Positions 49,695-63,050 are shown, numbered from the stretch's first letter. The stretch: DNA of 64,000 nt from an uncultured Pelosinus sp. (GCA_900542835.1 UQPB01000011.1:3668-67667); one strand, 5' to 3'. A program made the numbers and translations. The notes: generated by a model not told the origin, from the sequence alone.

Positions 49695-50387
49695 ATGCCG
49701 GGAAAAATTTTAATTGTTGATGATGAGGCGTCCATTCGCGAATTGCTTAAATTCAATCTGGAAAAGGCGGGGTTTTCCGTCGCTGAATGCGGTGATGGCA
49801 ATGAAGCCCTGCAACTAGTCAAATCGCACGCTCCCGAACTGCTGGTGCTTGATCTGATGCTGCCCGGACTTGACGGCATTGAGGTCTGCCGGACGCTGAA
49901 AAGCCATCGCGACACCTCGGGAATCCCCATCATCATGCTGACCGCCAAAAATGAGGAAATCGACAAGATTATTGGTCTGGAGATGGGCGCTGATGATTAC
50001 CTGACCAAGCCGTTCAGCCCACGCGAGCTGGTTGCCCGGGTTAAAGCGGTTCTTCGTCGCAGTCAGATGGGCAGCCCTCAGGAAGGGGAGCTGGTCATTG
50101 GCAAGCTGAAGATGAATTTTAGCCGTTACGAGGTTTTCCTCGGCAATGAAAAACTGGAACTGACGCCAAAAGAATACGAGCTGCTCAAGCTGTTTGTTAC
50201 CAATAGCGGCCGGGTATTCAGCCGTGAAAAACTGTTGGAAAAGATCTGGGGCTATGAATATTTTGGCGATACCCGCACTGTCGATGTCCATGTCCGCCAT
50301 ATCCGGGCCAAACTGGAGCAGGAGCCGGAAATCGCCGAGGCAATCGAGACGGTGCGCGGCGTTGGTTACCGCATGCGGGAGTTTTAA
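49695..50387 (+). CDS. OmpR/PhoB-family response regulator (PhoP/PhoB-like)
   Basis: Receiver (LIVDDE..D..MLPGLDG..K) + winged-helix (RTVDVHVRHIRAKLE); sits directly upstream of pstB-phoU. Confidence 0.85.
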   Translation: MPGKILIVDDEASIRELLKFNLEKAGFSVAECGDGNEALQLVKSHAPELLVLDLMLPGLDGIEVCRTLKSHRDTSGIPIIMLTAKNEEIDKIIGLEMGADDYLTKPFSPRELVARVKAVLRRSQMGSPQEGELVIGKLKMNFSRYEVFLGNEKLELTPKEYELLKLFVTNSGRVFSREKLLEKIWGYEYFGDTRTVDVHVRHIRAKLEQEPEIAEAIETVRGVGYRMREF

Positions 50388-50394
50388 CAAAAAC

Positions 50395-50438
50395 TTAACC
50401 TGGCGTTAACAATGCGGCGGTGGCGAACGTGGTATAGT
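50395..50438 (+). promoter_or_regulatory. Pho-box-like direct repeats (TTAACC-N5-TTAACA) plus extended -10 TGgTATAGT upstream of pstB-phoU
   Basis: Hexamer repeats with 11-bp periodicity as in Bacillus PhoP boxes [TT(A/T/C)ACA]. Confidence 0.5.
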
Positions 50439-50467
50439 ACCTGCAGAGACCCCGCAGGAGGAACAGC

Positions 50468-51223
50468 ATGGACATAAAAATACAGGCTAGTAAACTGAAA
50501 CTATATTATGGCGAAACACTCGCACTGAAGAAAATTTCGCTGGATGTGGAAAAAAACCATGTTCTGGCGCTGATCGGCCCTTCCGGCTGCGGCAAATCGA
50601 CGTTTCTCCGCACGCTGAACCGGATGAACGACCTGATTCCAGGCGTGAAGATCGAAGGCGAAGTGCTGATTGACGGCGAGAATGTCTACCATCCGAATAC
50701 GGATGTGGTTATGCTGCGCAAACGCGTCGGCATGGTCTTTCAGCGCCCCAATCCGTTTCCCATGTCAATTTATGAAAATGTGGTTTATGGCCCCCGCATC
50801 CATGGCCAAAGCTCCCGGCAGAAACTGGACGAGATTGTCGAAAAAAGCCTGACTGCGGCGGCTATCTGGGATGAGGTCAAGGACCGCCTGCGCAGTTCGG
50901 CAATGGGCCTTTCCGGCGGTCAGCAGCAGCGGTTGTGCATCGCCCGGCTGCTGGCGGTCGAGCCGGAAGTCCTGTTGATGGACGAACCGTGTTCGGCGCT
51001 TGATCCGATTTCGACGATGAAGATTGAAGAACTGGTCACAGAGTTGAAACAAAAGTATACGATTGTCATGGTTACCCACAATATGCAGCAGGCCGCCCGG
51101 GTATCGGATCATACAGCTTTTTTCCTGAATGGCGATTTAGTGGAATGCGGCCGCACCGACTCGATGTTCACCAGGCCGCATGATAAGCGTACCGAAGATT
51201 ATATTACCGGCAGATTCGGCTAG
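50468..51223 (+). CDS. pstB: Phosphate ABC transporter ATP-binding protein
   Basis: [22 protein letters not shown], typical PstB length 251 aa; Pho-box-like direct repeats upstream. Confidence 0.9.
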
Positions 51224-51225
51224 GA

Positions 51226-51897
51226 GTGATCACTATGAGTGTGAGGCAAAGTTATGATCATGAATTGGAATCGCTGCGCCAGGATCTGTTGGCTATGGGC
51301 ACGGTTGTCGGTACCGCGATCCAGCAGGCGGTGCAGGCTTTAACCAGCCAGAACACCGATCTGGCCAAGCGGATTATTGCCGGTGACGACCTGGTTGATG
51401 ATATGGAGATCGCCATTGAGGATAAATGCATGGTACTGATTGCCACGCAGCAGCCGCTGGCGCGTGACTTGCGGATTATCGGCGCGGCGATGAAAATCAG
51501 CACCGATCTTGAGCGGATGGGCGATCACGCCTATGATATCGCCAAGGTTGCCTGCCGGCTGGCGGATAAGCCGCCGCTGAAAAAGTTTATCGTCATACCC
51601 CGGATGGCGGAAGTGACCCAGCAAATGCTCAGTCAGGCGCTGGATGCCTACGTCCGGCTGGACACGCTGCTGGCCGAGCAAGTCTGCCGCACGGACGACG
51701 AGGTCGACAGGCTCTATGAGCATGTATTCCGTGAACTGCTGACCTATATGATGGAAGATCCGCGCAATATCTCTCACGCCGCCCAGCTGTTATTTGTGGC
51801 CCGTTATCTGGAGCGGATTGCCGATCATGTGACCAATATTTGCGAGTGGACGATTTTTCTGGCGACCGGACAGCGTATGCGCAAACCCGGCAACTGA
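51226..51897 (+). CDS. phoU: Phosphate transport system regulator PhoU
   Basis: Two PhoU repeats with conserved Asp/Glu (DDxVD, ERMGDHA; ERIADH); ATG 51235 is a better-spaced alternative start. Confidence 0.85.
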   Translation: MITMSVRQSYDHELESLRQDLLAMGTVVGTAIQQAVQALTSQNTDLAKRIIAGDDLVDDMEIAIEDKCMVLIATQQPLARDLRIIGAAMKISTDLERMGDHAYDIAKVACRLADKPPLKKFIVIPRMAEVTQQMLSQALDAYVRLDTLLAEQVCRTDDEVDRLYEHVFRELLTYMMEDPRNISHAAQLLFVARYLERIADHVTNICEWTIFLATGQRMRKPGN

Positions 51898-51946
51898 ACC
51901 GGTTAAGAAGAGGGCCCTGGATTGCCAGCAATCCAGGGCCCTCTTC

Positions 51947-53731
51947 TTATTGTTGCTGTTTGGCCAGCGGCAGGGTAAAGGTAAACGTCGTTCCTTCGTT
52001 GAGTTTGCTCTTGGCCCAGATGCGACCGCCCAGCGCCTCGACAATGAACCGGACGATAGCCAGTCCGAGACCGGTTCCGCCGGCCGAACGGGATCTCGCC
52101 TTCTCAACCCGGTAGAAGCGCTCAAAGATCAGCGGCAGGTCGCCGGCGGGAATGCCGATGCCGGTGTCGCTGACCGAGACCTGGGCCGTTTCGCCGTCCA
52201 ACTGACTGCGGACGGTTATGCTGCCGCCGGCTGGCGTATATTTAATTGCATTGTCCAGCAGGTTCAGCAGCACCTGCTTTAGCCAGTCGGCATTGGCCAA
52301 TACGGTTAGTTCCCCGGCGGGCTCAACTGTCAGTGCCAGTCCCTTGCTCTGCCAGCGCGGCGCCAGTTCCCGGACAATCGTGTCAATAAACCGGTTCAGC
52401 TCGACAGGCTCCAGCCGGACCTGATGACGGTAGTCGCTCGAATCCAGCTTGGCCAGCTGCAGCAGGTCGCCTACCAACCGCTGCATCCGTTCGGCTTCGG
52501 CATGAATAATCTGAAGAAACTTTTGGCTAAGCTCCTGATCGGATAGTGCCCCGTCAAGCAGTGTTTCGGCAAAGCCCTTGATCGCCGTAAGCGGCGTTGC
52601 CAGTTCATGCGAAGCGTTGGCGACGAATTCCACCTGACGCTCATGCACTTCCTGCAAGGCGGTAATATCATGAAAAACGCACAGTACACCGTTGGCTTCG
52701 GTTTCGCCGGCGATGGGAGCCAGTGCGATCTGGAACACCCGTTTTTTGCCGCGCAATTCGTTCTTCATTTCAATGGATTGATGCCTGTTGGAGGCGACGG
52801 TCTCCTGCAGGGAACGGTCAAATGCCGTATTGGCGATGATCTGGATATTGTGCTTGCCGAGCATGGCAGGCGTAACGCCAAAGGTGGTAGCTGCCATTTC
52901 ATTATAGGTTTCCATCCGGCCATAGCGGTCAAACAAAATGACGGCATTATCCATATGGGCCAGAATCAGCTCCAGCTTGCGTTTTTCCGCCAGGGTTTCG
53001 TTTACCGTATCGTCAAGACTGGATGCCAGCTTATTCAACGTATGCGCCAGCAGCTCAATTTCATCGCCGGTATGGATATGCACCCGCTTATCAAGGTGTC
53101 CCTGGGCCATTTCCTGGGCAACGCGGGTGATCTCCTCCAGCGGCGAGGTAAATTTTCCAGCCAGACGGATACTGATCAAGACCGCCAGCAGCGAGGTCAG
53201 CGCGAACGCCGCCAGCAGCACGGAGCGGATATTGGCAAAGCTGGCCTCCAGCGGCGTCAGACTGCTGGCGACGCGGACAACGCCGGCCACGCGGCCCTGT
53301 TGCAGCAGCGGTACGGCGGTATAAAGGAAGTTCTCGCTCAGCGTCGCGCTGTAGCGGATGAAGCTGCCTGTATTTCCCGACAGGGCGGCGGCTACCTCCG
53401 GCCGGTCGTGGTGGTTGTCGAAGATTTCCGGCGGTTCATAGGAGTCGGCAATTACCTGACCTTCGGCGGTAATGATCGTGATCCGCAGCGGAATTTGCTG
53501 ATGCAGTTCCTTGACTTTTTCATCCAGCTGCGGCCGGCTTAACGGTGATAGATAATAGTCGCGGACCAGCTCTTCGGTGATGCGGGCCTGTGTGATCAGC
53601 TGTGTTGTCAGGCTGGCGACATTGGTGCGGTGAAAATACCAGAGAATATAGGCGCCCAGCGTTGCCAGCGCTCCCACTGTCAACAGCAGCAGTGTAATGA
53701 TTAACCGGGTTCTGATGCTTTGCGTCAGCAT
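51947..53731 (-). CDS. Sensor histidine kinase, PhoR-like (TM - extracytoplasmic domain - HAMP - PAS - HisKA - HATPase)
   Basis: HisKA H-box VANASHELATPLTAIKG, N/G1/G2 boxes; start at internal Met MLTQSIR (53729-53731) with RBS aaaggagcgg. Confidence 0.8.
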   Translation of the reverse strand: MLTQSIRTRLIITLLLLTVGALATLGAYILWYFHRTNVASLTTQLITQARITEELVRDYYLSPLSRPQLDEKVKELHQQIPLRITIITAEGQVIADSYEPPEIFDNHHDRPEVAAALSGNTGSFIRYSATLSENFLYTAVPLLQQGRVAGVVRVASSLTPLEASFANIRSVLLAAFALTSLLAVLISIRLAGKFTSPLEEITRVAQEMAQGHLDKRVHIHTGDEIELLAHTLNKLASSLDDTVNETLAEKRKLELILAHMDNAVILFDRYGRMETYNEMAATTFGVTPAMLGKHNIQIIANTAFDRSLQETVASNRHQSIEMKNELRGKKRVFQIALAPIAGETEANGVLCVFHDITALQEVHERQVEFVANASHELATPLTAIKGFAETLLDGALSDQELSQKFLQIIHAEAERMQRLVGDLLQLAKLDSSDYRHQVRLEPVELNRFIDTIVRELAPRWQSKGLALTVEPAGELTVLANADWLKQVLLNLLDNAIKYTPAGGSITVRSQLDGETAQVSVSDTGIGIPAGDLPLIFERFYRVEKARSRSAGGTGLGLAIVRFIVEALGGRIWAKSKLNEGTTFTFTLPLAKQQQ

Positions 53732-54034
53732 AATCCGCTCCTTTAGTTCGTATTGTTTAGGGCAGTCGCTTATGACAGTCTTCTGAACTGCAAACAGGCG
53801 TGAGGTTGAAAATGTGTAAACCGGAAACACTATAGTCAGCCATTCCGCATTGGCGGCGCACCTGCTTGTACAGATGCACTAGGGACTGCTTCTGGTTCAG
53901 CACAGCTTTTTCCTGTTCCGGATAGCACGGCTCAGCATTATTCCAATAAACAAATGAGTCCGATTATCTTAACAGTAGAGGATATTTGCCAGAAATACAA
54001 GATGCTGCTACAATATATCCTGTTGCCCGGCGAT

Positions 54035-54062
54035 TTAACTAAATGAAAATATAGCGTTAACA
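54035..54062 (+). promoter_or_regulatory. Pho-box-like repeats (TTAACT-N5-AAAATA-N5-TTAACA) upstream of the glycosyltransferase-PLC pair
   Basis: 11-bp-periodic TTAACA-type hexamers in the divergent region shared with the PhoR-like kinase gene. Confidence 0.4.
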
Positions 54063-54118
54063 AACGCCTGCAGGATAGTTGATAAACTGAAGTCAGCGAA
54101 AGCAAAAGGGGTGAGACT

Positions 54119-55255
54119 GTGTCGCAGCGACGTAGGACCATATTGCTGGCGTCGGCTTCGATCGGTTCCGGCCACATGCAGGCCGCGAAGGCGATCGAGA
54201 CCGCCTGGCGGGAGGCCTTTCCCGCGGACGAAGTCATTGTCGCCGATTCCATGGATGGCGGCAGTTCCTATGTACAGCATGTGCTTAAGGAAACCTACCT
54301 CAAAATGATTGCCGTAACACCGTTTCTTTATGACACGCTGTACCATCTTTCCCAGGGGCTGAGTCCGGGTTCGCGCGGGCAAAGCCTGTTTTCCTGGTTT
54401 ATGCAAAAGACCATGCAGCAGTTGTACAGCCGGCATCAGCCGGACCTGGTCATTTGTACCCACCCATTCCCCTGTGCGGCCATGGCTTATTTAAAACGCC
54501 ACCACCGTATCAGCGCCCCCCTTGCCGGGGTAATCACCGATTTTGCCGTTCATGGCACCTGGATCTACCCGGAGACGGATTTATATACGGTAGCCGCCGA
54601 CGAGCTAAAAGCAGAGCTGGTTGGGCGGGGCATCGCCGCCGACCGTATCGATGCCTGCGGCATCCCCGTGCAGCCGCCGCTGCCGCCGGCAGCAGCCGAT
54701 TATCAAAAGCTGGGGCTGCAGCCCGGATTGCCTGTCGTTATGCTGATGGGAGGCGGTCTTGGCCTTGGTCCGCTGCGGGAAGTGCTGCTTGCACTTGATT
54801 CAGTTGCGGTACCGCTGCAGATTGCCGCTGTCGCCGGCAATAATTCCGGCCTGCAGCAGGAACTCAGTGCGGCTGCTGCCGGGCTGCGCCATCAGACCAC
54901 TGTTTTCGGCTATACGCCATATGTGCGGGAACTGATGCAAGCCGCCGCTCTTTTGATCACCAAGCCGGGGGCGCTGACAATCAGCGAAGCTCTGGCTGCA
55001 GGACTGCCGATGCTGTTGTTTCAATCCTTTCCCGGTCAGGAGACGGACAATGCTGCTTTCTTGCTTGAGCGGGGCGCTGCCGGCTGGTTTGAGCCGGACG
55101 GGGCGGAACAGATCGTCCGGCTTCTGACAGACAGCGGCGAGCGCCGCCAGGCTCTTGCCGCGATCAACCGGATTGCCCGGCCCGCTTCTGCCAAAGCGGC
55201 TGTGGCGGCTATCGCCGCCCGGCTGCTGCCAGCGGGGCAGGCCGCAGGTATGTAG
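54119..55255 (+). CDS. Glycosyltransferase, MGDG-synthase / UgtP-like (GT28 family) diacylglycerol glycosyltransferase
   Basis: N-terminal RTILLASASIGSGHMQAAKAI (MGDG synthase N-domain) and C-terminal GT-B nucleotide-binding half; GTG start; Pho-box-like repeats upstream. Confidence 0.7.
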   Translation: MSQRRRTILLASASIGSGHMQAAKAIETAWREAFPADEVIVADSMDGGSSYVQHVLKETYLKMIAVTPFLYDTLYHLSQGLSPGSRGQSLFSWFMQKTMQQLYSRHQPDLVICTHPFPCAAMAYLKRHHRISAPLAGVITDFAVHGTWIYPETDLYTVAADELKAELVGRGIAADRIDACGIPVQPPLPPAAADYQKLGLQPGLPVVMLMGGGLGLGPLREVLLALDSVAVPLQIAAVAGNNSGLQQELSAAAAGLRHQTTVFGYTPYVRELMQAAALLITKPGALTISEALAAGLPMLLFQSFPGQETDNAAFLLERGAAGWFEPDGAEQIVRLLTDSGERRQALAAINRIARPASAKAAVAAIAARLLPAGQAAGM

Positions 55256-55273
55256 CGTAAAGGAGATGGCTGT

Positions 55274-55999
55274 ATGCAACTGCAGGAGATCGCGGAGGCT
55301 TCCATGGTCGGCGGCGTCAAGCTGCTGCTGGCGACAGCGGCACCGCTGCAGACATTGTTTGATAAACCCTGCGTTACACATGTGTTCTGCAACCGTCAGG
55401 CAATAACGATCCTGTCGGCAGATGGTTTTTATGACAGCGCCGCTTTTTACTTGCGCTACCTTGAGGCGCTGAACGCTGGCGTAGCCTGGGCTGATCAGGG
55501 GTGGAAGAACGTCAATCATTATTTTTCCCCCGACTCACGTCAGGGCTTGTGGTATTTCTCCACCGCTGTTGCCGAATTCAACCGTTATTTTAACCACAGC
55601 ATTCGCTGCATGCGGCGGGCCGATCCGGCCGGAGCCTGCTTTCTGCTTGGAGCGGCGGCGCATTTACTGCAGGATCTGTGTGTGCCGCATCATGCCAGAG
55701 GCAAAGTGTTCTGCGGCCACAAACAATATGAGGATTGGGCGGGACGGCATTACAGCCGCTTTGCTGCCGGCAGCGGCGGCATATACCGCCCCGGCCGTGC
55801 CGAATCCCTGCTGCTTGCCAATGCCGCGGTCAGCGCCGATTTGTTCAGCCAGGTCGCCAGTGAGCATGACGAAGCCTCCTATCAGGCGGCGACAGCGATC
55901 CTGCTGCCGCTGGCGCAGCGGACAACAGCGGGGCTGCTGCTGCGTTTTTATCAGCAAATGTGCCAGAGAATGCCCAGCCACGCGGTCTTTGTTGCCTAG
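55274..55999 (+). CDS. Zinc-dependent phospholipase C domain protein (cytoplasmic or membrane-associated, no signal peptide)
   Basis: THVFCNRQAI and LQDLCVPHHARG align with the Zn-ligand segments of B. cereus PLC / C. perfringens alpha-toxin N-domain; 18-nt gap after the glycosyltransferase gene. Confidence 0.6.
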   Translation: MQLQEIAEASMVGGVKLLLATAAPLQTLFDKPCVTHVFCNRQAITILSADGFYDSAAFYLRYLEALNAGVAWADQGWKNVNHYFSPDSRQGLWYFSTAVAEFNRYFNHSIRCMRRADPAGACFLLGAAAHLLQDLCVPHHARGKVFCGHKQYEDWAGRHYSRFAAGSGGIYRPGRAESLLLANAAVSADLFSQVASEHDEASYQAATAILLPLAQRTTAGLLLRFYQQMCQRMPSHAVFVA

Positions 56000-56045
56000 T
56001 AATACGTCAGGTATTGCCGGCAACCGCACCGCGTGGCTGTTTTTA

Positions 56046-56099
56046 TTAACAAAAACGTAACAATCGCTTAACATATCGGCATTGGCGATGCGGTAATAT
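56046..56099 (+). promoter_or_regulatory. Triple Pho box (TTAACA-N5-GTAACA-N5-TTAACA) and -10 TAATAT upstream of pstS
   Basis: Three hexamers at exact 11-bp spacing, -10 about 20 nt downstream. Confidence 0.55.
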
Positions 56100-56144
56100 A
56101 GACCTTGGAAAGACAAGACAAGCAAAAATAGGAGGAGTTCATTA

Positions 56145-57002
56145 ATGAATTTCAAAAAAGTTATTGCTTTCGCCGCGGTTGCCGCTTTATCCGCCGGTCT
56201 GATTGCCGGCTGCGGCGGCTCCAAGGAGGCGCCGAAACAGGCAGCCCAGCCGCAGGGTATTGAAGGCAAGGTATCCGCATCCGGGTCCAGCGCGCTGCTG
56301 CCGCTGCTAAAAGCCGCCCAGGAAGATTTTCAGAAAAAGAATGCCAAGGTTACGGTTAATATTTCCGCCGGCGGTTCGTTTACCGGTCAAAACCAGGTAG
56401 CGTCCGGCGCTGTTGATATCGGTAACTCTGATGTTGCCCTGCAGGACAGTCTGAAGGACAAAGGCCTGATTGAACATAAGCTGGTCGGTATTCCGTTTGT
56501 CTTTATTGCTAATCCTTCTGTAAGTGTCGATTCGCTGACCGAACAGCAATATGTGGATATCCTGACCGGTAAAATTACCAACTGGAAGGATGTCGGCGGC
56601 AAAGACGAGAAAATTACGATCCTCAGCCGGGCTAAATCATCCGGTTCGCGGGCGACCATCGAGCAAGTTGTACTCAAAGGCAAATCGATTACCGATAATG
56701 TTGTCATTCAGGATTCCAACGGCGCGCTCCGGACCGCGGTTGCCACAACTCCCGGTTCTATCGGCTACGTTGACGCCGCCTACGTGGATAAAACTGTAAA
56801 AGGCCTGAAATACAATGGTGTGGAGTATTCGATCGATAACGTTACCGGCGGCAAGTATCCGGTATTCTCCTTTGGCCGCATGTTTACCAAAGGACAGCCG
56901 GCAGGCGCGGTGAAGGCGTTTATCGATTACGCGACCAGCAAGGAATTCCAGGAAGCCTTTGCTGAAAAGAACGGCTTTATTCCGGTTACGAAAATGAAAT
57001 AG
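56145..57002 (+). CDS. pstS: Phosphate ABC transporter substrate-binding lipoprotein
   Basis: Lipobox LIAGCGGS; PstS/PBP family-2 phosphate-binding motifs (SGSSA, GYVD); three PhoP-type boxes upstream. Confidence 0.85.
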   Translation: MNFKKVIAFAAVAALSAGLIAGCGGSKEAPKQAAQPQGIEGKVSASGSSALLPLLKAAQEDFQKKNAKVTVNISAGGSFTGQNQVASGAVDIGNSDVALQDSLKDKGLIEHKLVGIPFVFIANPSVSVDSLTEQQYVDILTGKITNWKDVGGKDEKITILSRAKSSGSRATIEQVVLKGKSITDNVVIQDSNGALRTAVATTPGSIGYVDAAYVDKTVKGLKYNGVEYSIDNVTGGKYPVFSFGRMFTKGQPAGAVKAFIDYATSKEFQEAFAEKNGFIPVTKMK

Positions 57003-57043
57003 TGTTTTTGCTCCCTGCGTAGGGAGAGGATTTCCGCCTTGAG

Positions 57044-57107
57044 CAGCCTCCGGCTAATTGCCCGCATACACCTGTATACGGCGACGGGCCGGAGGCTGTG
57101 GTGTTTT
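57044..57107 (+). terminator. Terminator/attenuator after pstS (CAGCCTCCGG...CCGGAGGCTG + TGGTGTTTTT), preceded by a small hairpin CTCCCT-GCGT-AGGGAG
   Basis: 10-bp stem with large internal loop and T-run; typical partial terminator separating pstS from downstream pst genes. Confidence 0.65.
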
Positions 57108-57133
57108 TGAATAAACAAGAAAATAGGTGTCGT

Positions 57134-58915
57134 ATGAACCGTAAACTAAACCAAGCCTGGCTAACGATAAGGCAGTGGCGGCTTGTCCCGCCGGCAGTGT
57201 TTCAATTGGCGAAGATTAGTTTGCAAAAAAAGATGCTTCTGGTTGTCGGTCTGCTTACCTGTGTCTCTATTTGTGTGGCGATTGTTGGCCTGCGGGGCAT
57301 TGCGACAGCTAACGACCGGCTGCGCGAGACCTACCAGCTGCGGATTGTTCCTTTTACCGAATTGAAGGCAGTTAATGATAATTATGTGATGATCATTGAT
57401 ACTACCCACAAGCTTAGGAATGGCAACATGACCTGGCAGGTTGCCGGTGAACGGCTGGAGGCTGCGACCAGGGCGATCGAGCTGCACTGGGCCAACTATC
57501 AGGCAAAGGGCGGCAGCGGCGAGCGGCAGTTAATCGCTCAGATTGAAATGCAGTTTGGTATTGCCAACACGGAGTTAGAAAATCTTAAACGGATTGTCGG
57601 CAGTCAGGATATGAATGCGCTGGCTGATTTTATGATTAATGTCATGTATTCGGGCATAGAACCGATTTCGGTGCAAATATCCGCCCTGATTGACTGGGAG
57701 CTGCAGGCGGCGCGTGAGGATTACGAGGCTGCTCAGGAACATTACCGGCTGCAGGCGGGATTGTTTATCGCCCTCGTCGCCGCCGGACTTGTGCCGGCAC
57801 TTGGCTTTTCCCTTGCCGTTATCCGGCTGACGCTGCTGCCGATACGGGAAATGGTAACGGCAGTAGAACAGATCGCTGTCGGCAACCTGGCAGTCAACCG
57901 GATGGAAGTTGTCAGTAACGACGAGGTCGGCCGCCTGGGAGCCGCTATCAATACGATGCTGGGCAATCTTAACCGGCTGGTCGAGCAGGTACGGCTTTCG
58001 GCCGGTAAGGTTGCCGCGGCTTCGGCGGAGACAGTCGCCGCTGCCGGCGGCGTGGAACAGACCGCAGCCGGCCTGCTTGACGGCAGCCGGCAACTGCACC
58101 GGCATGCCAATGAGGGCAGCGGTTCAATTGTGGAAGTAGCAAAGGTACTGGTTGAATTGTCCTCCTTGCTGGAAATTGCCCGCATCCGCGCCGAATCGAC
58201 TGCTGAAAAGGCGGTTGAGACAACACAGGCCACGCTGGAAGGCAAAACCGCTGTGGCTGCGACTGTTATGCGGATGCAGGAAATCGAACGGAAAACAGTT
58301 GATACCGAAAGCCGCATACAGACCCTGGAAGAGTACTCCCGCCAGATTGCGCTGATTAACCAGACCATTACCGGGATTGCCGCCCAGACAAATCTACTGG
58401 CACTTAACGCGGCGATCGAGGCGGCGCGAGCAGGGGAGGCCGGCCGCGGCTTTGCCGTTGTCGCCCGCGAGGTGACGAGCCTTGCCGAGCAATCCCGCAG
58501 CGGGGCTAGACAGGTTTCCGAACTGGTGGAAAAAATTTCGCAGGGAACCGCCGCCGTTGTCTGCGGCATCGATGAAAGCCGCCAGCTGGCGGCTGAGGGC
58601 GTGGAACTGGCGGCCGCGGCCGGCGGCCGGCTTGATCATATTGTGCAAACCGTTGGCGCCAGCAGCCGGGAAATCAACGGCGTTCTGGAAGTAACGCAGG
58701 AAGATGTGGCTCAATCGGAGCGTATCATCGAACTCATCGATTCGCTGGCGACGATTATTGAAAGCACAGCGACCAATGCCCGGCAGGTAACTGCGGCTGC
58801 GCAGCAGACCTCGACCATAATGGCTTCGCTGACCGCGGCGGCGGAGGAATCCAATTCGCTGGCGGCCGGTCTGCGTTCAGAGATTGGCTATTTCCAGACA
58901 GAACAGGAGGCTTAA
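57134..58915 (+). CDS. Methyl-accepting chemotaxis protein with 4-helix-bundle (4HB_MCP) sensor, HAMP and MA domains
   Basis: Two TM segments flanking a ~170-aa periplasmic domain; HAMP; highly conserved MA signalling domain ([24 protein letters not shown]). Confidence 0.85.
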
Positions 58916-58917
58916 CG

Positions 58918-59229
58918 ATGGATGTAACCGTAGAAGACGGCCGGGCAGTCATGCGCATAGCCGGCGAGTTTCAGGGAAAAAACGCCGCTGACGTGCGCGA
59001 CGCGCTGCTCGCATGCCTGCAGGATGGCCATCGTCATGTTGTGATCGATCTGAGTGGCGTCAGCCTGATCAATGCCACCGGAATCGGCGTTCTGGTCAGC
59101 GTCCAGCAGCGCTTGGAGGCGCTGGGAGGCAAGCTGAGCCTGTATGGTCTGGAGCAGCCGGTCGGCCAGGTGCTCGAGCGAACCCGGCTTCACCGCAGCT
59201 TCGATAGTGAACCGCCGGCCGAATCTTAA
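58918..59229 (+). CDS. STAS-domain protein (anti-sigma-factor antagonist, SpoIIAA/RsbV-like)
   Basis: 103 aa; DLSGVSLINATGIGVL matches the SpoIIAA phospho-loop region (Thr instead of Ser); ATG 3 nt after the MCP stop codon, RBS inside the MCP 3' end. Confidence 0.7.
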   Translation: MDVTVEDGRAVMRIAGEFQGKNAADVRDALLACLQDGHRHVVIDLSGVSLINATGIGVLVSVQQRLEALGGKLSLYGLEQPVGQVLERTRLHRSFDSEPPAES

Positions 59230-59249
59230 CAAAAAATTAACATGAAATT

Positions 59250-59282
59250 AATAGAATCGGAATTGTTGTCCATTATAATTCT
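59250..59282 (+). promoter_or_regulatory. Putative internal promoter (-10 TATAAT at ~59274, AT-rich UP-like tract) upstream of the leader element and pstC
   Basis: TATAAT read directly; -35 weak; lies in the 265-nt gap between the STAS gene and pstC. Confidence 0.35.
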
Positions 59283-59297
59283 TGTGAAGAGTCTTGG

Positions 59298-59452
59298 TAA
59301 GCGATGATTAAATGAACCGGTCAGGCAGGCGAAAATTTTTTCACCTGGCAAGGAAGCGAGAGCGCAGGAAGAGCAGCTCTTTCAAGGTCTTGCTGACGCA
59401 GCCAGACGGCAACAGCTCCGCCAGCTTGGGCTGCGTGACTTAATCAGTGCTG
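59298..59452 (+). repeat. MITE-like structured element, family L, copy 2 (leader of pstC-pstA-EAL/GGDEF inside the pst operon)
   Basis: See family L description; ends 42 nt before the pstC ATG; TATAAT 20 nt upstream. Confidence 0.75.
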
Positions 59453-59494
59453 ACCTTGCGCTTGTGTCAATGCGAATAAGGATGTGAACATTTA

Positions 59495-60388
59495 ATGCCG
59501 GCAATCGATCAGGGAAGCAGCCACAAACTGAAGCTGATGTATGACAACTATATCCGGATGCTGTTTGTGGCTTCCGCTGCGTTAATGGCAGTGATTATTT
59601 TTGCGATCATTTTGTTTATCGGCCAGCAGGGGCTGCTGACCTTTAAAGAAGTCACGCCGCTGGAGTTTTTCCTGTCAGCAAAATGGGACCCGACTGACGG
59701 CCGTTACGGCGCCTTAAGCTTTATTCTCGGCTCAATCTGTACGACCTTTCTCGCCGTGCTCATCGGTGCGCCGCTGGGACTGGCGGGAGCGGTTTTCCTG
59801 GCTAAGATCGCTCCCCAGAGCGTCAGACGGTTCATGCGCCCGGCAACGGATTTATATGTAGCCGTGCCGTCAGTTGTTTACGGCTATATCGGGCTTACCG
59901 TTCTTATTCCGTTTATCCGCGTGCATTTTGACGCCGGATCGGGATTTGGACTGCTGGCAGCATCGCTGATACTGGCGGTTATGATTCTGCCGACCGTTAT
60001 TACTATTTCCGAGGACGCCATTCGTTCTGTGCCGGCAAATCTGGAGGAAGCGTCGCTGGCTCTCGGCGCTACCCGCTGGCAGACTGTTCGCCGCGTCCTG
60101 CTGCCGGCGGCGGCTCCCGGCATTCTAACGGCGATTATCCTGGCTATGGCCAGGGCGATTGGCGAAACAATGGCGGTGCAGATGGTAATCGGCAACACGC
60201 CGCTGCTGCCCAAGTCGCTGCTGACACCGACCGCAACCCTTACCAGTGAAATTGTTGTTGAGATGGGCAATACGCCGTTTGGGTCGACCTGGGGCAACTC
60301 CCTGTTCTTAATGGCGCTGGTCCTGCTGGCTATTTCCTTATTGATGATTGTGTGCATCCGTCATATCGGCAAGAGGAGGTTTGCCTGA
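59495..60388 (+). CDS. pstC: Phosphate ABC transporter permease
   Basis: 6 TM, EAA-like loop EEASLALGATRWQTVRRVLLP; typical PstC. Confidence 0.9.
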   Translation: MPAIDQGSSHKLKLMYDNYIRMLFVASAALMAVIIFAIILFIGQQGLLTFKEVTPLEFFLSAKWDPTDGRYGALSFILGSICTTFLAVLIGAPLGLAGAVFLAKIAPQSVRRFMRPATDLYVAVPSVVYGYIGLTVLIPFIRVHFDAGSGFGLLAASLILAVMILPTVITISEDAIRSVPANLEEASLALGATRWQTVRRVLLPAAAPGILTAIILAMARAIGETMAVQMVIGNTPLLPKSLLTPTATLTSEIVVEMGNTPFGSTWGNSLFLMALVLLAISLLMIVCIRHIGKRRFA

Positions 60389-61245
60389 TGTCGCCTCGGT
60401 TTAGCGATAAATTAGCAACTGCAGTCATGTGGCTTGCGGCGTTGCTGATTCTTGGCATCCTGTTCTGCTTTTTGGGGTATATGCTGATCCAAGGCCTGCC
60501 GGTTCTGTCCTGGAATTTCATTTTCGGCATGTCGAGCGATACTCAGGCCGGCGGCGGCGTCGGTCCGCAGCTGTTCAATTCGTTTTATATCCTGATCCTA
60601 TCGCTGGCGTTTGCCATTCCTGTGGCTGTCGGTGCCGGCATTTATCTGGCTGAATACGCCTCGGACAACTGGCTGACCAATCTGGTCCGGCTCAGCACGG
60701 AAAGCCTGGCTACCGTTCCGTCCATCGTACTCGGTCTGTTCGGAATGATCGTATTTGTCAATATAGCCGGCTTTGGTATCAGCATTATTGCCGGCTCGCT
60801 GTCACTGATGCTGTTAAACCTGCCGGTACTGGTACGGGTAACGGAAGAATCGCTGCGGACGGTTCCGGCTTCTTTCCGTGAAGCCAGCCTGGCGCTGGGG
60901 GCGACCAAGTGGCAAACCATCTGGCGTGTCATTCTGCCTAATGCCCTGCCGGGAATTATTACCGGTGTAACCCTGACTGCCGGCAGGGCCCTGGGCGAAA
61001 CCGCCATTCTTATTTTTACCGCCGGCACCACCGTGTCGCGCAATTTGCCTGATATCGACCTGCTAGCCTCGGGCGAGACGCTGGCTGTGCATATGTGGTA
61101 TGTCATGGCGCTAGGCCTGGTGCCTGACCGGCTGGATATCGCCAACGGCATTGGCGCACTGCTGATTATTGTAGTGCTGCTGTTTAATCTCGCACTGACT
61201 GTGCCTGCTGAATTGATGCGGCGCCGCATGGGCGGCGGCCGTTGA
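60388..61245 (+). CDS. pstA: Phosphate ABC transporter permease
   Basis: TGATG overlap with pstC stop; EAA loop REASLALGATKWQTIWRVILP. Confidence 0.9.
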   Translation: MSPRFSDKLATAVMWLAALLILGILFCFLGYMLIQGLPVLSWNFIFGMSSDTQAGGGVGPQLFNSFYILILSLAFAIPVAVGAGIYLAEYASDNWLTNLVRLSTESLATVPSIVLGLFGMIVFVNIAGFGISIIAGSLSLMLLNLPVLVRVTEESLRTVPASFREASLALGATKWQTIWRVILPNALPGIITGVTLTAGRALGETAILIFTAGTTVSRNLPDIDLLASGETLAVHMWYVMALGLVPDRLDIANGIGALLIIVVLLFNLALTVPAELMRRRMGGGR

Positions 61246-61259
61246 CAGGAGAGAGAAAT

Positions 61260-63050
61260 ATGCCTGGCGATTTTACAATACCTGACCCTGATTCGCACAC
61301 GGATTCCGTGGAGGCTGAACTACGGTCAATTATCGCCAATCGCGATATTTATACCGTGTTTCAGCCGATTGTTTCGCTGACTGACGCCACGATTATCGGC
61401 TACGAAGCGTTAAGCCGCGGCCCTGCGGGTTCGTCGCTGGAGCAGCCCGACCGTCTGTTTGCCGCTGCCGCCGCTTTGGACCTGCTGTGGGAACTGGATC
61501 TCTTATGCCGCTTCCGGGCGTTGGAGACGGCCAACGGCCTGCTGGAAAACTATCTGCTGTTCATCAATGTCGACCCCAAGATCATCAATGACCCGCGGTT
61601 TCAGAAAGGCTTGACCCGCGGCTATTTAAACGCCGCCGCGCATGATATTCTGGGCATTGTCTTTGAAATCACCGAGAAGACGGCGGTGCAGGATTATAAA
61701 GCATTTCGCCGCATTCTCGACAATTATACCAGTCAGGGCTATCAGATTGCGCTTGATGATACCGGTTCCGGTTATTCCGGCCTCACCTTGCTGGCAGAGA
61801 CTCGGCCGCAGTATGTCAAGCTGGATATGGAGCTGGTCAGGCATATTGACAAGGATTCGCTGAAGCAGGCCCTGATCCGCTCTCTGTGCCAGTTTGCCGA
61901 CGCCAGCAATATTAAGCTGATCGCCGAAGGCATTGAGACTGTCAACGAGCTGGAGTGCCTGATCGACATCGGTGTTCATTATGGTCAGGGCTTTTTTCTG
62001 CAGCGGCCGGCCGCCGGACCTATTGCTCTCAATGCGGCTATGGTACTGCATATCCGCGAGCGGAATGACGCAAAGCAAAGGCAAATGTTCTGTCCGACTC
62101 TATCTGTTCCTATCGGTGAGATCGCCCGCCGTGATCCCTCGTTTCCGCCGCAGGCGTCGGGCCAGGAAATGATTGCTTATTTTAATCGCAATCCGGCGGT
62201 ACAGGGAATTCCGATTGTTGAGAACGGCAGGCCGCTGGGATTATTATCAAAGCATAAGTTTCTTGGCCACCTGGCTACGCAATACGGTGTCGCCATTTAT
62301 ATGAACCGCCCGGTACATCTTCTGATGGATAAAAATCCGTTGATTGTCGACTGGAGTACGCCGCTGGAGCAGGTGAGCACATTTGCCGTGGCCCGTTCGG
62401 ACGAACGCCTGTATGATTATATCATTGTCACCCAGGATAACGCCTATTACGGCATAACCACCGTAAAAGCGCTGCTGGAAAAAACCACTCAGTTAGAAGT
62501 TACCCGGGCGAAATACGCAAATCCCCTGACCGGGCTGCCAGGCAACTTTCTGATTGAGCAGGAATTGAAGCGGGCTGTCTGCGACGGTCAGGATTATGCG
62601 GTGCTGTATTTTGACCTGGATAATTTCAAGGCCTATAATGACCTATATGGATTTGAGAATGGTGATAAAATTCTTATCTTTACAGCGCAGACAATTCAAG
62701 CCGGCCTGGACCAATATCAGCCGTCCGGGGCTTTTTTGGGCCATATCGGCGGCGATGATTTTGTTGCTGTAATCAAGAATGATAACGCAGCCGGCTTATG
62801 TGAAGCGATTATTGCCGCATTTGACCGCCAGATAGGCGCTTTTTACAGTGAGCGAGACCGTGAGCAGGGATTTGTTATCTCCAAGAACCGGCATGGCAGT
62901 GACGAACAGTTCCCTTTGATTTCGATCTCAATCGGTGTGGTTACCGGCCGTCGCAATCGCTTTACCAGCCATCTGCAGATTGGCGAAGCCGCCAGCCTGG
63001 TCAAGAAGGAGTGCAAGCTGACCTGGCAGAGCTGCTATCATATCGCCTGA
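61260..63050 (+). CDS. c-di-GMP phosphodiesterase-type protein: EAL domain - CBS pair - degenerate GGDEF (GGDDF) domain
   Basis: EAL motifs intact (EALSR, DDTGSGYSG, EGIET, QGFFLQRP); central tandem CBS-like segments; GGDEF domain with NPLTGLPGN, DLDNFKAYND but active-site GGDDF; begins 12 nt after the pstA stop. Confidence 0.85.
   Translation: MPGDFTIPDPDSHTDSVEAELRSIIANRDIYTVFQPIVSLTDATIIGYEALSRGPAGSSLEQPDRLFAAAAALDLLWELDLLCRFRALETANGLLENYLLFINVDPKIINDPRFQKGLTRGYLNAAAHDILGIVFEITEKTAVQDYKAFRRILDNYTSQGYQIALDDTGSGYSGLTLLAETRPQYVKLDMELVRHIDKDSLKQALIRSLCQFADASNIKLIAEGIETVNELECLIDIGVHYGQGFFLQRPAAGPIALNAAMVLHIRERNDAKQRQMFCPTLSVPIGEIARRDPSFPPQASGQEMIAYFNRNPAVQGIPIVENGRPLGLLSKHKFLGHLATQYGVAIYMNRPVHLLMDKNPLIVDWSTPLEQVSTFAVARSDERLYDYIIVTQDNAYYGITTVKALLEKTTQLEVTRAKYANPLTGLPGNFLIEQELKRAVCDGQDYAVLYFDLDNFKAYNDLYGFENGDKILIFTAQTIQAGLDQYQPSGAFLGHIGGDDFVAVIKNDNAAGLCEAIIAAFDRQIGAFYSERDREQGFVISKNRHGSDEQFPLISISIGVVTGRRNRFTSHLQIGEAASLVKKECKLTWQSCYHIA

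Follow-up and report, generated by a model that had tools for sequence, protein, structure and literature searches.

A predicted Pho-regulated operon pairing a GT28 glycosyltransferase with a leaderless zinc phospholipase C-like protein in an uncultured Pelosinus species

How might an anaerobic Firmicute replace its phospholipids when phosphorus runs short? Among the major responses of microbes to phosphorus scarcity is the exchange of phospholipids for lipids that contain no phosphorus, and the enzymes of this exchange are known mainly from Proteobacteria and phototrophs. The question is raised by a pair of adjacent genes (54119-55999) in a 64,000-nucleotide stretch of DNA from an uncultured Pelosinus sp. 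(GCA_900542835.1 UQPB01000011.1:3668-67667; hereafter the window, in whose positions all coordinates are given), the first encoding a glycosyltransferase of family GT28 and the second a zinc-dependent phospholipase C (PLC)-like protein. A preliminary description, drawn up from the sequence alone, had placed this pair behind PhoP-type repeats in a Firmicute-type genome and had proposed that it is a candidate equivalent, built from unrelated parts, of the PlcP-based lipid-remodelling modules of other bacteria. The host is indeed a Firmicute, with the qualification that it is a diderm one (Sporomusaceae, Negativicutes); an identical protein in public data bears the label Sporomusaceae bacterium. 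We find the genes and the Pho-type repeats to be as proposed, we delimit the operon and its promoter architecture, and we lean, by a modest preference, towards reading the pair in full as a Pho-regulated lipid-remodelling operon that would swap phospholipid for a phosphorus-free glycolipid when inorganic phosphate (Pi) is scarce.

The second gene of the pair (55274-55999, plus strand) is an intact open reading frame (ORF) for 241 residues, located where it had first been described, and its product is a predicted cytoplasmic, diacylglycerol-producing PLC. The only Pfam family it matches is Zn_dep_PLPC (PF00882), at 40 bits against a gathering cutoff of 26.8, and an NCBIfam scan of the protein returned no match. 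A profile built from 87 homologues, on whose alignment the statements on conservation below are based, matches the phosphatidylcholine-hydrolysing PLC (PC-PLC) of Bacillus cereus (1ah7) with an E-value of 2e-14. It pairs H36 with H14 of PC-PLC, D74 with D55, H82 with H69, H130 with H118, D134 with D122, H140 with H128, H149 with H142 and E153 with E146, so that all eight side-chain zinc ligands of PC-PLC are kept, and these are invariant across the 87 homologues. The segments THVFCNRQAI and LCVPHHARG, which the preliminary description had aligned with the ligands of bacterial PC-PLC, are thus correctly placed. The structural comparison points the same way: the AlphaFold (AF2) model has a mean pLDDT (predicted local distance difference test score) of 88, and its top 17 Foldseek matches are all PC-PLC, alpha-toxin or Listeria PlcB, with template modelling (TM) scores of 0.67-0.73 (about 0.70) and E-values down to 3e-8. 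The S1/P1 nucleases, which have the superfold in common with these lipases, were considered as an alternative identity and rejected because their fold match is far weaker (TM about 0.5, E about 0.07); they survive only in a minor rival explanation discussed below. Sequence identity to the characterised zinc PLCs is only about 20%, and the family to which the protein belongs is small, comprising 314 clusters at 50% identity (E <= 1e-3) among 1.84 billion representatives.

No members of the zinc metallophospholipase C superfamily are known to us other than secreted toxins and virulence factors, and all characterised Zn_dep_PLPC members are secreted by means of a signal peptide, with or without a propeptide. 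In the protein from the window neither a signal peptide nor a transmembrane segment is evident by a heuristic assessment of hydrophobic run length, charge and conservation, which we applied to all 87 homologues; the lack of a leader noted at the outset therefore stands. The longest run free of polar and charged residues before H36 spans nine residues in 74 of the 87 sequences, and the median of the maximum 19-residue Kyte-Doolittle mean over this region is 1.28, with no segment hydrophobic enough to span a membrane. The N-region of the protein is acidic, and the segment preceding H36 carries three invariant residues (L19, Q26 and P32) and two near-invariant ones (P24 and D30), which makes it unlike a signal peptide. 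On these three grounds, hydrophobic run length, charge and sequence conservation, we reject a signal peptide or membrane anchor. As the GT28 enzyme would need cytoplasmic UDP-sugar, a leaderless PLC is what this topology requires, and the absence of both signal peptide and transmembrane segment fits a cytoplasmic partner of a UDP-sugar-dependent transferase.

The protein departs from its secreted relatives in two further respects. In every characterised zinc PLC that we know of, the free N-terminus of Trp1 ligates the third zinc ion, by way of the amino and carbonyl groups of this residue. Trp1 has no counterpart here, where 35 residues precede H36, the equivalent of H14, and where position 23, which lies in the register of Trp1, is Ser, Gly or Ala, with no processing site evident. 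Likewise, Tyr56, which lines the choline pocket of PC-PLC, corresponds to a variable position in the family, occupied by K, Q or E.

The first gene of the pair (54119-55255, plus strand) starts with GTG and encodes 378 residues, or 370 in the public gene call, which places the start eight codons later. It had been described as a GT28 glycosyltransferase resembling monogalactosyldiacylglycerol (MGDG) synthase and UgtP, and the domain matches uphold this: MGDG_synth (PF06925) is matched over its full length (model positions 1-169 of 169) with an E-value of 7e-33, and Glyco_tran_28_C (PF04101) with 1e-8, both above the Pfam cutoffs. The closest solved structure is that of a processive diacylglycerol beta-glucosyltransferase (9wde, 1e-38), and Arabidopsis MGD1 (4wyi, 3e-29) is also among the best solved relatives. 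Against the NCBIfam equivalog model of UgtP, the diglucosyl-diacylglycerol synthase (NF010135), the protein scores 232.7 bits, well under the cutoff of 500; we therefore treat it as a member of the family, and not as an assigned orthologue, and predict it to be a UDP-hexose:diacylglycerol glycosyltransferase.

The two genes are separated by 18 nucleotides, exactly as first measured, and this gap holds the ribosome-binding site of the PLC gene (AAGGAG, 55260-55265, plus strand, 8 nucleotides 5' of the ATG, as read from the sequence). Downstream, an intrinsic terminator (55975-56045, plus strand) is formed by a hairpin over the last PLC codons (55975-56039) followed by GUUUUU. With a minimum free energy of -41.8 kcal/mol (z = -6.2), it is more stable than every one of 200 shuffled sequences. 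The Pho boxes of pstS, the next gene, begin at 56046, the base right after the terminator, and the pair is therefore a discrete bicistronic unit, set apart from the pstS transcript. An Rfam scan of 53600-56300, covering the operon and the phoR-GT28 intergenic region, gave only three sub-threshold chance matches at E <= 1, and hence no structured RNA.

In order to place the repeats upstream of the pair in context, we counted the matches to TTAACA at p, p+11 and p+22 (maximum 18) for each position p of the window and for either strand. Only four sites score at least 14, and they precede pstB (50384, score 17), the GT28 gene (54035-54062, plus strand, score 14), pstS (56046-56073, plus strand, TTAACA-GTAACA-TTAACA, score 17, our reference site) and pstC (59226, score 17); a fifth match, at 50409 on the minus strand, is the pstB site read in reverse. 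The element upstream of GT28 consists of TTAACT (54035), AAAATA (54046) and TTAACA (54057), separated by 5 nucleotides each, of which the outer two are good and the middle one is degenerate, with three of six matches. The phased hexamers at 11-bp spacing that had been reported for this region are thus real, with this one weak repeat. A score of 14 or more is reached with a probability of 0.004 in shuffles of the element's own upstream region and of 0.027 in 270-bp segments drawn at random from the related loci described below, a null that itself includes real Pho boxes.

The four sites also have a common promoter geometry, the -10 hexamer beginning 26-27 nucleotides after the start of the third box: TATAGT for pstB, TAAACT for GT28, TAATAT for pstS and TATAAT for pstC. 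At the GT28 gene the hexamer, 26 nucleotides from the third box, belongs to a predicted extended -10 of a Pho-dependent promoter (TG-a-TAAACT, 54080-54088, plus strand), which aligns with the TGnTAnAAT of most orthologous promoters. This promoter has no -35 hexamer, as would be expected of one that depends on an activator. A second predicted promoter, sigma-70-like (TTGCCA, 17 nucleotides, TG-c-TACAAT; 53986-54014, plus strand; 10 of 12 consensus matches together with the TG), lies about 20 nucleotides upstream of the Pho boxes, so that binding of the regulator would fall just past its start site; it could serve in a switch between two promoters or in basal expression.

Conservation strengthens the case for the Pho element. 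In 23 orthologous GT28 promoters, three TTAACA-type repeats are followed after 16 nucleotides by what is mostly TGnTAnAAT, with scores of 14-18 and at the same distance to the start codon. The triple element is kept in Sporomusa acidovorans, S. silvacetica and Sporomusa sp. KB1, in whose 20-kb loci there is no pst gene, and it is therefore not a spill-over from a neighbouring pst promoter. For comparison, scores range from 13 to 18 at the pstS promoters of 22 other loci and average 16.8 when that of the window is included (23 promoters), and operons of Negativicutes and Desulfosporosinus in which the PLC gene comes first score 14-16. From this promoter architecture and its conservation, we consider it very probable that the operon is Pho-regulated.

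The pairing itself is also conserved. A scan of one genome per species gave 195 relatives, from which we kept 80 loci. According to tblastn and ORF clustering, 41 of the 80 have a gene of the GT28 family immediately beside the PLC gene and in the same orientation; the GT28 gene lies upstream in 32-33 (depending on the method) and downstream in 8-9, and the intergenic gap is mostly shorter than 45 nucleotides in 32 orthologous pairs. Of the 24 Negativicutes-type loci flanked by at least 8 kb on each side, 21 have GT28 adjacent and 16 have pst or pho genes no more than 10 kb away. The reverse order, PLC-GT28, is found in Desulfosporosinus and Syntrophomonas, and in one locus PLC and GT28 are followed by a gene for a PhoB-like regulator, pstSCAB and phoU. 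In several Desulfotomaculia (L043, L061, L067 and L071 in our set), a PLC gene without GT28 partner is preceded, at a distance of a few genes, by pstSCA. A CYTH-CHAD gene stands directly 3' of the PLC gene in seven loci; CYTH is a triphosphate-tunnel domain and CHAD is associated with polyphosphate granules, and this neighbour adds a further link to phosphorus metabolism. PIN-PhoH is a recurrent neighbour as well.

Taken together, these data suggest the following course of events. When Pi is scarce, a PhoR/PnpS-like kinase would phosphorylate a regulator of the PhoB/PhoP type, which would bind the phased TTAACA repeats at 54035-54062 and activate the -35-less promoter with the extended -10 at 54080-54088. 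A single mRNA would span both genes and end at the terminator at 55975-56045. The leaderless, trinuclear-zinc PLC would act at the cytoplasmic face of the inner membrane and cleave bulk phospholipids, probably of the phosphatidylethanolamine and phosphatidylglycerol types, to diacylglycerol and a soluble phospho-headgroup, whose phosphorus could be recycled. The co-translated GT28 enzyme would then glycosylate the diacylglycerol with a UDP-hexose, such that a glycosyl-diacylglycerol replaces the phospholipid and diacylglycerol does not build up. In a more general form, the proposal is that Negativicutes and some Clostridia possess a Pho-regulated, cytoplasmic, housekeeping branch of the zinc PLCs, with a modified third zinc site, that feeds GT28 and is a non-orthologous replacement of PlcP-Agt; here we regard the chances as evenly balanced.

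Several observations weigh against reading the pair as a remodelling operon. Its Pho element is weaker than those of its orthologues, both in the middle hexamer and in the -10 TAAACT, and the strong sigma-70-like promoter at 53986-54014 could provide Pi-independent transcription. The missing Trp1 suggests that the third zinc site differs or that the protein is processed, and its activity could differ accordingly, while the score below the UgtP cutoff makes the diacylglycerol acceptor and the sugar of the GT28 enzyme no more than predictions from family membership. Most homologues in Desulfotomaculia and Pelotomaculum, furthermore, are solitary, many with neither a GT28 nor a pst gene nearby; unrelated oxidoreductase genes lie next to them, and they lack Pho-type repeats (scores 10-12). 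The family is therefore broader than the phosphate-linked module and not universally tied to Pi; these homologues exclude such a link for the family as a whole, and the module is proposed only for the GT28-paired, Pho-box-preceded clade that contains the window. The upstream promoter, the degenerate hexamer and the stand-alone homologues of other Clostridia without Pho boxes would all suit a pair that is simply a housekeeping route to membrane glycolipid, under little control by Pi and close to pst through inherited synteny. To our knowledge, lipoteichoic-acid synthesis is not expected as a source of diacylglycerol in Negativicutes. Such a route is nevertheless quite unlikely, given that the triple TTAACA and the extended -10 are conserved in 23 orthologous promoters, also away from pst, with a geometry identical to that of the pstS, pstB and pstC promoters. 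A further alternative is export of the PLC, which might be processed like the toxins, by cleavage of a pro-segment to give a new N-terminus near residue 23, and liberate phosphate esters from exogenous or outer-membrane phospholipids. In favour of this, the secreted PLCs arise from pro-enzymes, the envelope of Negativicutes includes a periplasm and an outer membrane, and residue 23 lies exactly 13 residues before H36, which reproduces the Trp1-His14 spacing of PC-PLC. The hydrophobic stretch, however, has just nine residues and is preceded by an acidic N-region, position 22, the would-be -1, is often V, T or I and unsuited to signal peptidase I, the N-terminal segment is strongly conserved, and a UDP-sugar transferase in the cytoplasm would have no direct access to diacylglycerol formed elsewhere; we thus hold export to be highly improbable.

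Other alternatives accept the control by Pi and differ in the reaction of the zinc enzyme. The main one is that it is a phosphatidate phosphatase, which would turn newly made phosphatidic acid into diacylglycerol for GT28 and so support a de novo glycolipid membrane with no breakdown of phospholipid. The synteny and the Pho boxes would fit this equally well, the fold superfamily includes the S1/P1 nucleases, of which P1 nuclease also has phosphomonoesterase activity, and both the altered third zinc site with its missing N-terminal Trp ligand and the variable K/Q/E at the position of Tyr56 would be compatible with another substrate. The protein is, on the other hand, clearly nearer to the PLCs in sequence and fold (E 2e-14, TM 0.70), the nucleases reaching only E about 0.07 and TM about 0.5, and no Zn_dep_PLPC member is known to be a phosphatidate phosphatase, short of an exhaustive search, which together make this solution unlikely, if a serious competitor. 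We find it still harder to believe that the enzyme scavenges phosphorus from a phosphodiester other than bulk lipid, such as nucleic acid, glycerophosphodiesters, lipid A or polyprenyl-phosphate-linked intermediates, and that its pairing with GT28 reflects co-regulation only. A Pho-regulon member with a trinuclear-zinc phosphoesterase fold common to nucleases would suit that role, as would the neighbouring PhoH and CYTH-CHAD genes, whose products are not lipid enzymes; against it stand the weak match to the nuclease fold, the tight linkage to a GT28 gene of the diacylglycerol type, which recurs across classes in two independent arrangements, and the presence of a GT4 glycosyltransferase gene near the PLC gene in some loci that have no GT28. 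The remodelling operon therefore remains the reading that we prefer, on the evidence of domain matches, promoter geometry and gene order.

The GT4 genes just mentioned lie one to three genes from the PLC gene in three GT28-less loci (L039, L043 and L067). GT4 is the family of Agt, and its members may be an alternative partner that consumes diacylglycerol. Two genomes, those of Lucifera butyrica and Desulfotomaculum copahuensis, encode two PLC-like paralogs each, of which only one per genome is found near pst; the Lucifera copy is also paired with GT28, while the D. copahuensis copy (L043, the other being L056) is not. In three further loci, from Desulforadius tongensis, a Desulfotomaculum metagenome-assembled genome (MAG) and an unclassified Bacillota MAG, a stand-alone PLC homologue is followed by genes for a Fur/Zur-like regulator and a ZnuC/ZnuB-like ATP-binding cassette transporter (identified by eye), which hints at a link to zinc homeostasis in the clade without Pho boxes. 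In three MAG loci of Negativicutes type, one of which bears the label Acholeplasmataceae, the next gene after PLC encodes a VTT/DedA-family membrane protein. An EAL-CBS-GGDEF protein, of the kind associated with cyclic di-GMP, is a recurrent neighbour in 23 related loci; its gene immediately precedes GT28 in one locus from Lucifera and several from Sporomusa, immediately follows PLC in others, and comes after pstA in the window (61242-63050).

The wider neighbourhood of the pair in the window reads spoVT, yabM, mazG, HU, phoB-like, pstB, phoU, phoR (on the opposite strand), GT28, PLC and pstS, followed by genes for a methyl-accepting chemotaxis protein (MCP) and a STAS-domain protein and then by pstC, pstA, EAL-CBS-GGDEF, spoIID, yabP, yabQ and divIC. 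In agreement with the preliminary description, the pair is flanked by the gene for a PhoR-like kinase, which is divergent from it (51947-53734, minus strand), and by pstS (56145-57002). The kinase, the probable sensor of the system, has HAMP, PAS, HisKA and HATPase domains and scores 412.6 bits against the PnpS model of NCBIfam (cutoff 400), being the only protein discussed here that exceeds an NCBIfam equivalog cutoff. The probable binder of the TTAACA repeats is an OmpR-family response regulator of the PhoB/PhoP type (49695-50387, plus strand), whose top NCBIfam match, to the PhoB equivalog model TIGR02154, scores 269.9 bits and stays under the cutoff of 296.

The phosphate transporter genes are dispersed over 49695-61245 and do not form a single pstSCAB operon. 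The MCP, with TarH/4HB, HAMP and MCPsignal domains, and the STAS-domain protein are inserted between pstS and pstC (57098-59229), where the stop codon of the STAS gene is overlapped by the pstC Pho boxes at 59226; the two could form a phosphate-linked taxis or signalling pair. A hairpin with a perfect 20-bp stem between the convergent phoU and phoR genes (51904-51949) is probably a bidirectional terminator. The presence of spoIID, yabP, yabQ and gerA-like neighbours prompted us to consider a link to sporulation, which we rejected because these genes form a conserved backbone (spoVT, yabM, mazG ... yabP, yabQ, divIC) that is interrupted by the pho cluster, and because they are located beyond the operon or on the opposite strand.

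If the proposed remodelling is correct, anaerobic Firmicutes of soils, sediments and digesters gain a defined pathway for it, the first lipid-remodelling pathway under Pi stress to be defined in the phylum, and an enzyme family otherwise known as secreted toxins gains a physiological, intracellular role. A toxin-family enzyme acting as a cytoplasmic housekeeping lipase would be moderately surprising to specialists. It would also offer a possible evolutionary source, or sink, of the toxin PLCs, and zinc PLC and GT28 genes behind TTAACA repeats would become a marker of phosphorus stress in anoxic metagenomes. The protein raises the structural question of how a trinuclear zinc site functions without the N-terminal Trp ligand, and the pair itself would be a compact cassette of two genes with which heterologous hosts could convert phospholipids to glycolipids.

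Each component of the proposed operon has counterparts in known systems. The promoters controlled by PhoP-PhoR in Bacillus subtilis, whose architecture is well established, likewise carry repeats of the TT(A/T/C)ACA type at about 11-bp phasing, which replace the -35 upstream of a sigma-A -10. They differ in having classically four boxes, where we find three, and an operon of glycolipid synthase and PLC is not a known member of the Pho regulon there. With UgtP (YpfP) of B. subtilis and plant MGD1, the transferase has in common a full-length MGDG_synth N-domain and a GT28 C-domain, while differing from UgtP in its score below the equivalog cutoff, its PLC partner and the Pho boxes upstream of its gene. 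The diacylglycerol of B. subtilis derives for the most part from the synthesis of lipoteichoic acid, a route that is not expected in Negativicutes.

The zinc protein has the same fold as B. cereus PC-PLC, the N-domain of Clostridium perfringens alpha-toxin and Listeria PlcB (TM about 0.70), together with the eight side-chain ligands. In contrast to these secreted enzymes, it has no signal peptide and no Trp1 ligand, and instead a conserved N-terminal segment of 35 residues; it also lacks a C-terminal PLAT domain, does not conserve the choline-pocket position, and is encoded in what we predict to be a Pho-regulated housekeeping operon and not in a virulence locus. A full-text search of the literature, of incomplete coverage, yielded no description of a GT28-PLC pairing or of an intracellular zinc PLC under Pho control, and any claim to novelty is provisional to that extent.

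Functionally closest are the PlcP-Agt systems of Sinorhizobium, Agrobacterium, SAR11 and marine Roseobacter, in which the gene for an intracellular, PLC-type enzyme likewise lies by that for a diacylglycerol glycosyltransferase, with a Pho box upstream. Indeed, plcP is often found in an operon with a glycosyltransferase gene behind a Pho box in marine bacteria (PMC4796936), and an Agt homologue matters for the fitness of Desulfovibrio alaskensis under Pi limitation (PMC5193443). The lipase of the window belongs to the trinuclear-zinc family PF00882, its only match, and not to PlcP, from which it is told apart by profile matches and not by a direct comparison, and the transferase is of the GT28/MGDG-synthase type, and not a GT4 enzyme as is Agt; the idea of an equivalent module assembled from unrelated parts is thus supported on both counts. 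Further differences are that the transferase gene comes first, that the host is an anaerobic diderm Firmicute, and that the TTAACA repeats are of the Bacillus PhoP type. The outcome predicted from the sequence would nonetheless be alike in both systems, the conversion of phospholipid via diacylglycerol to a phosphorus-free glycolipid under Pi stress.

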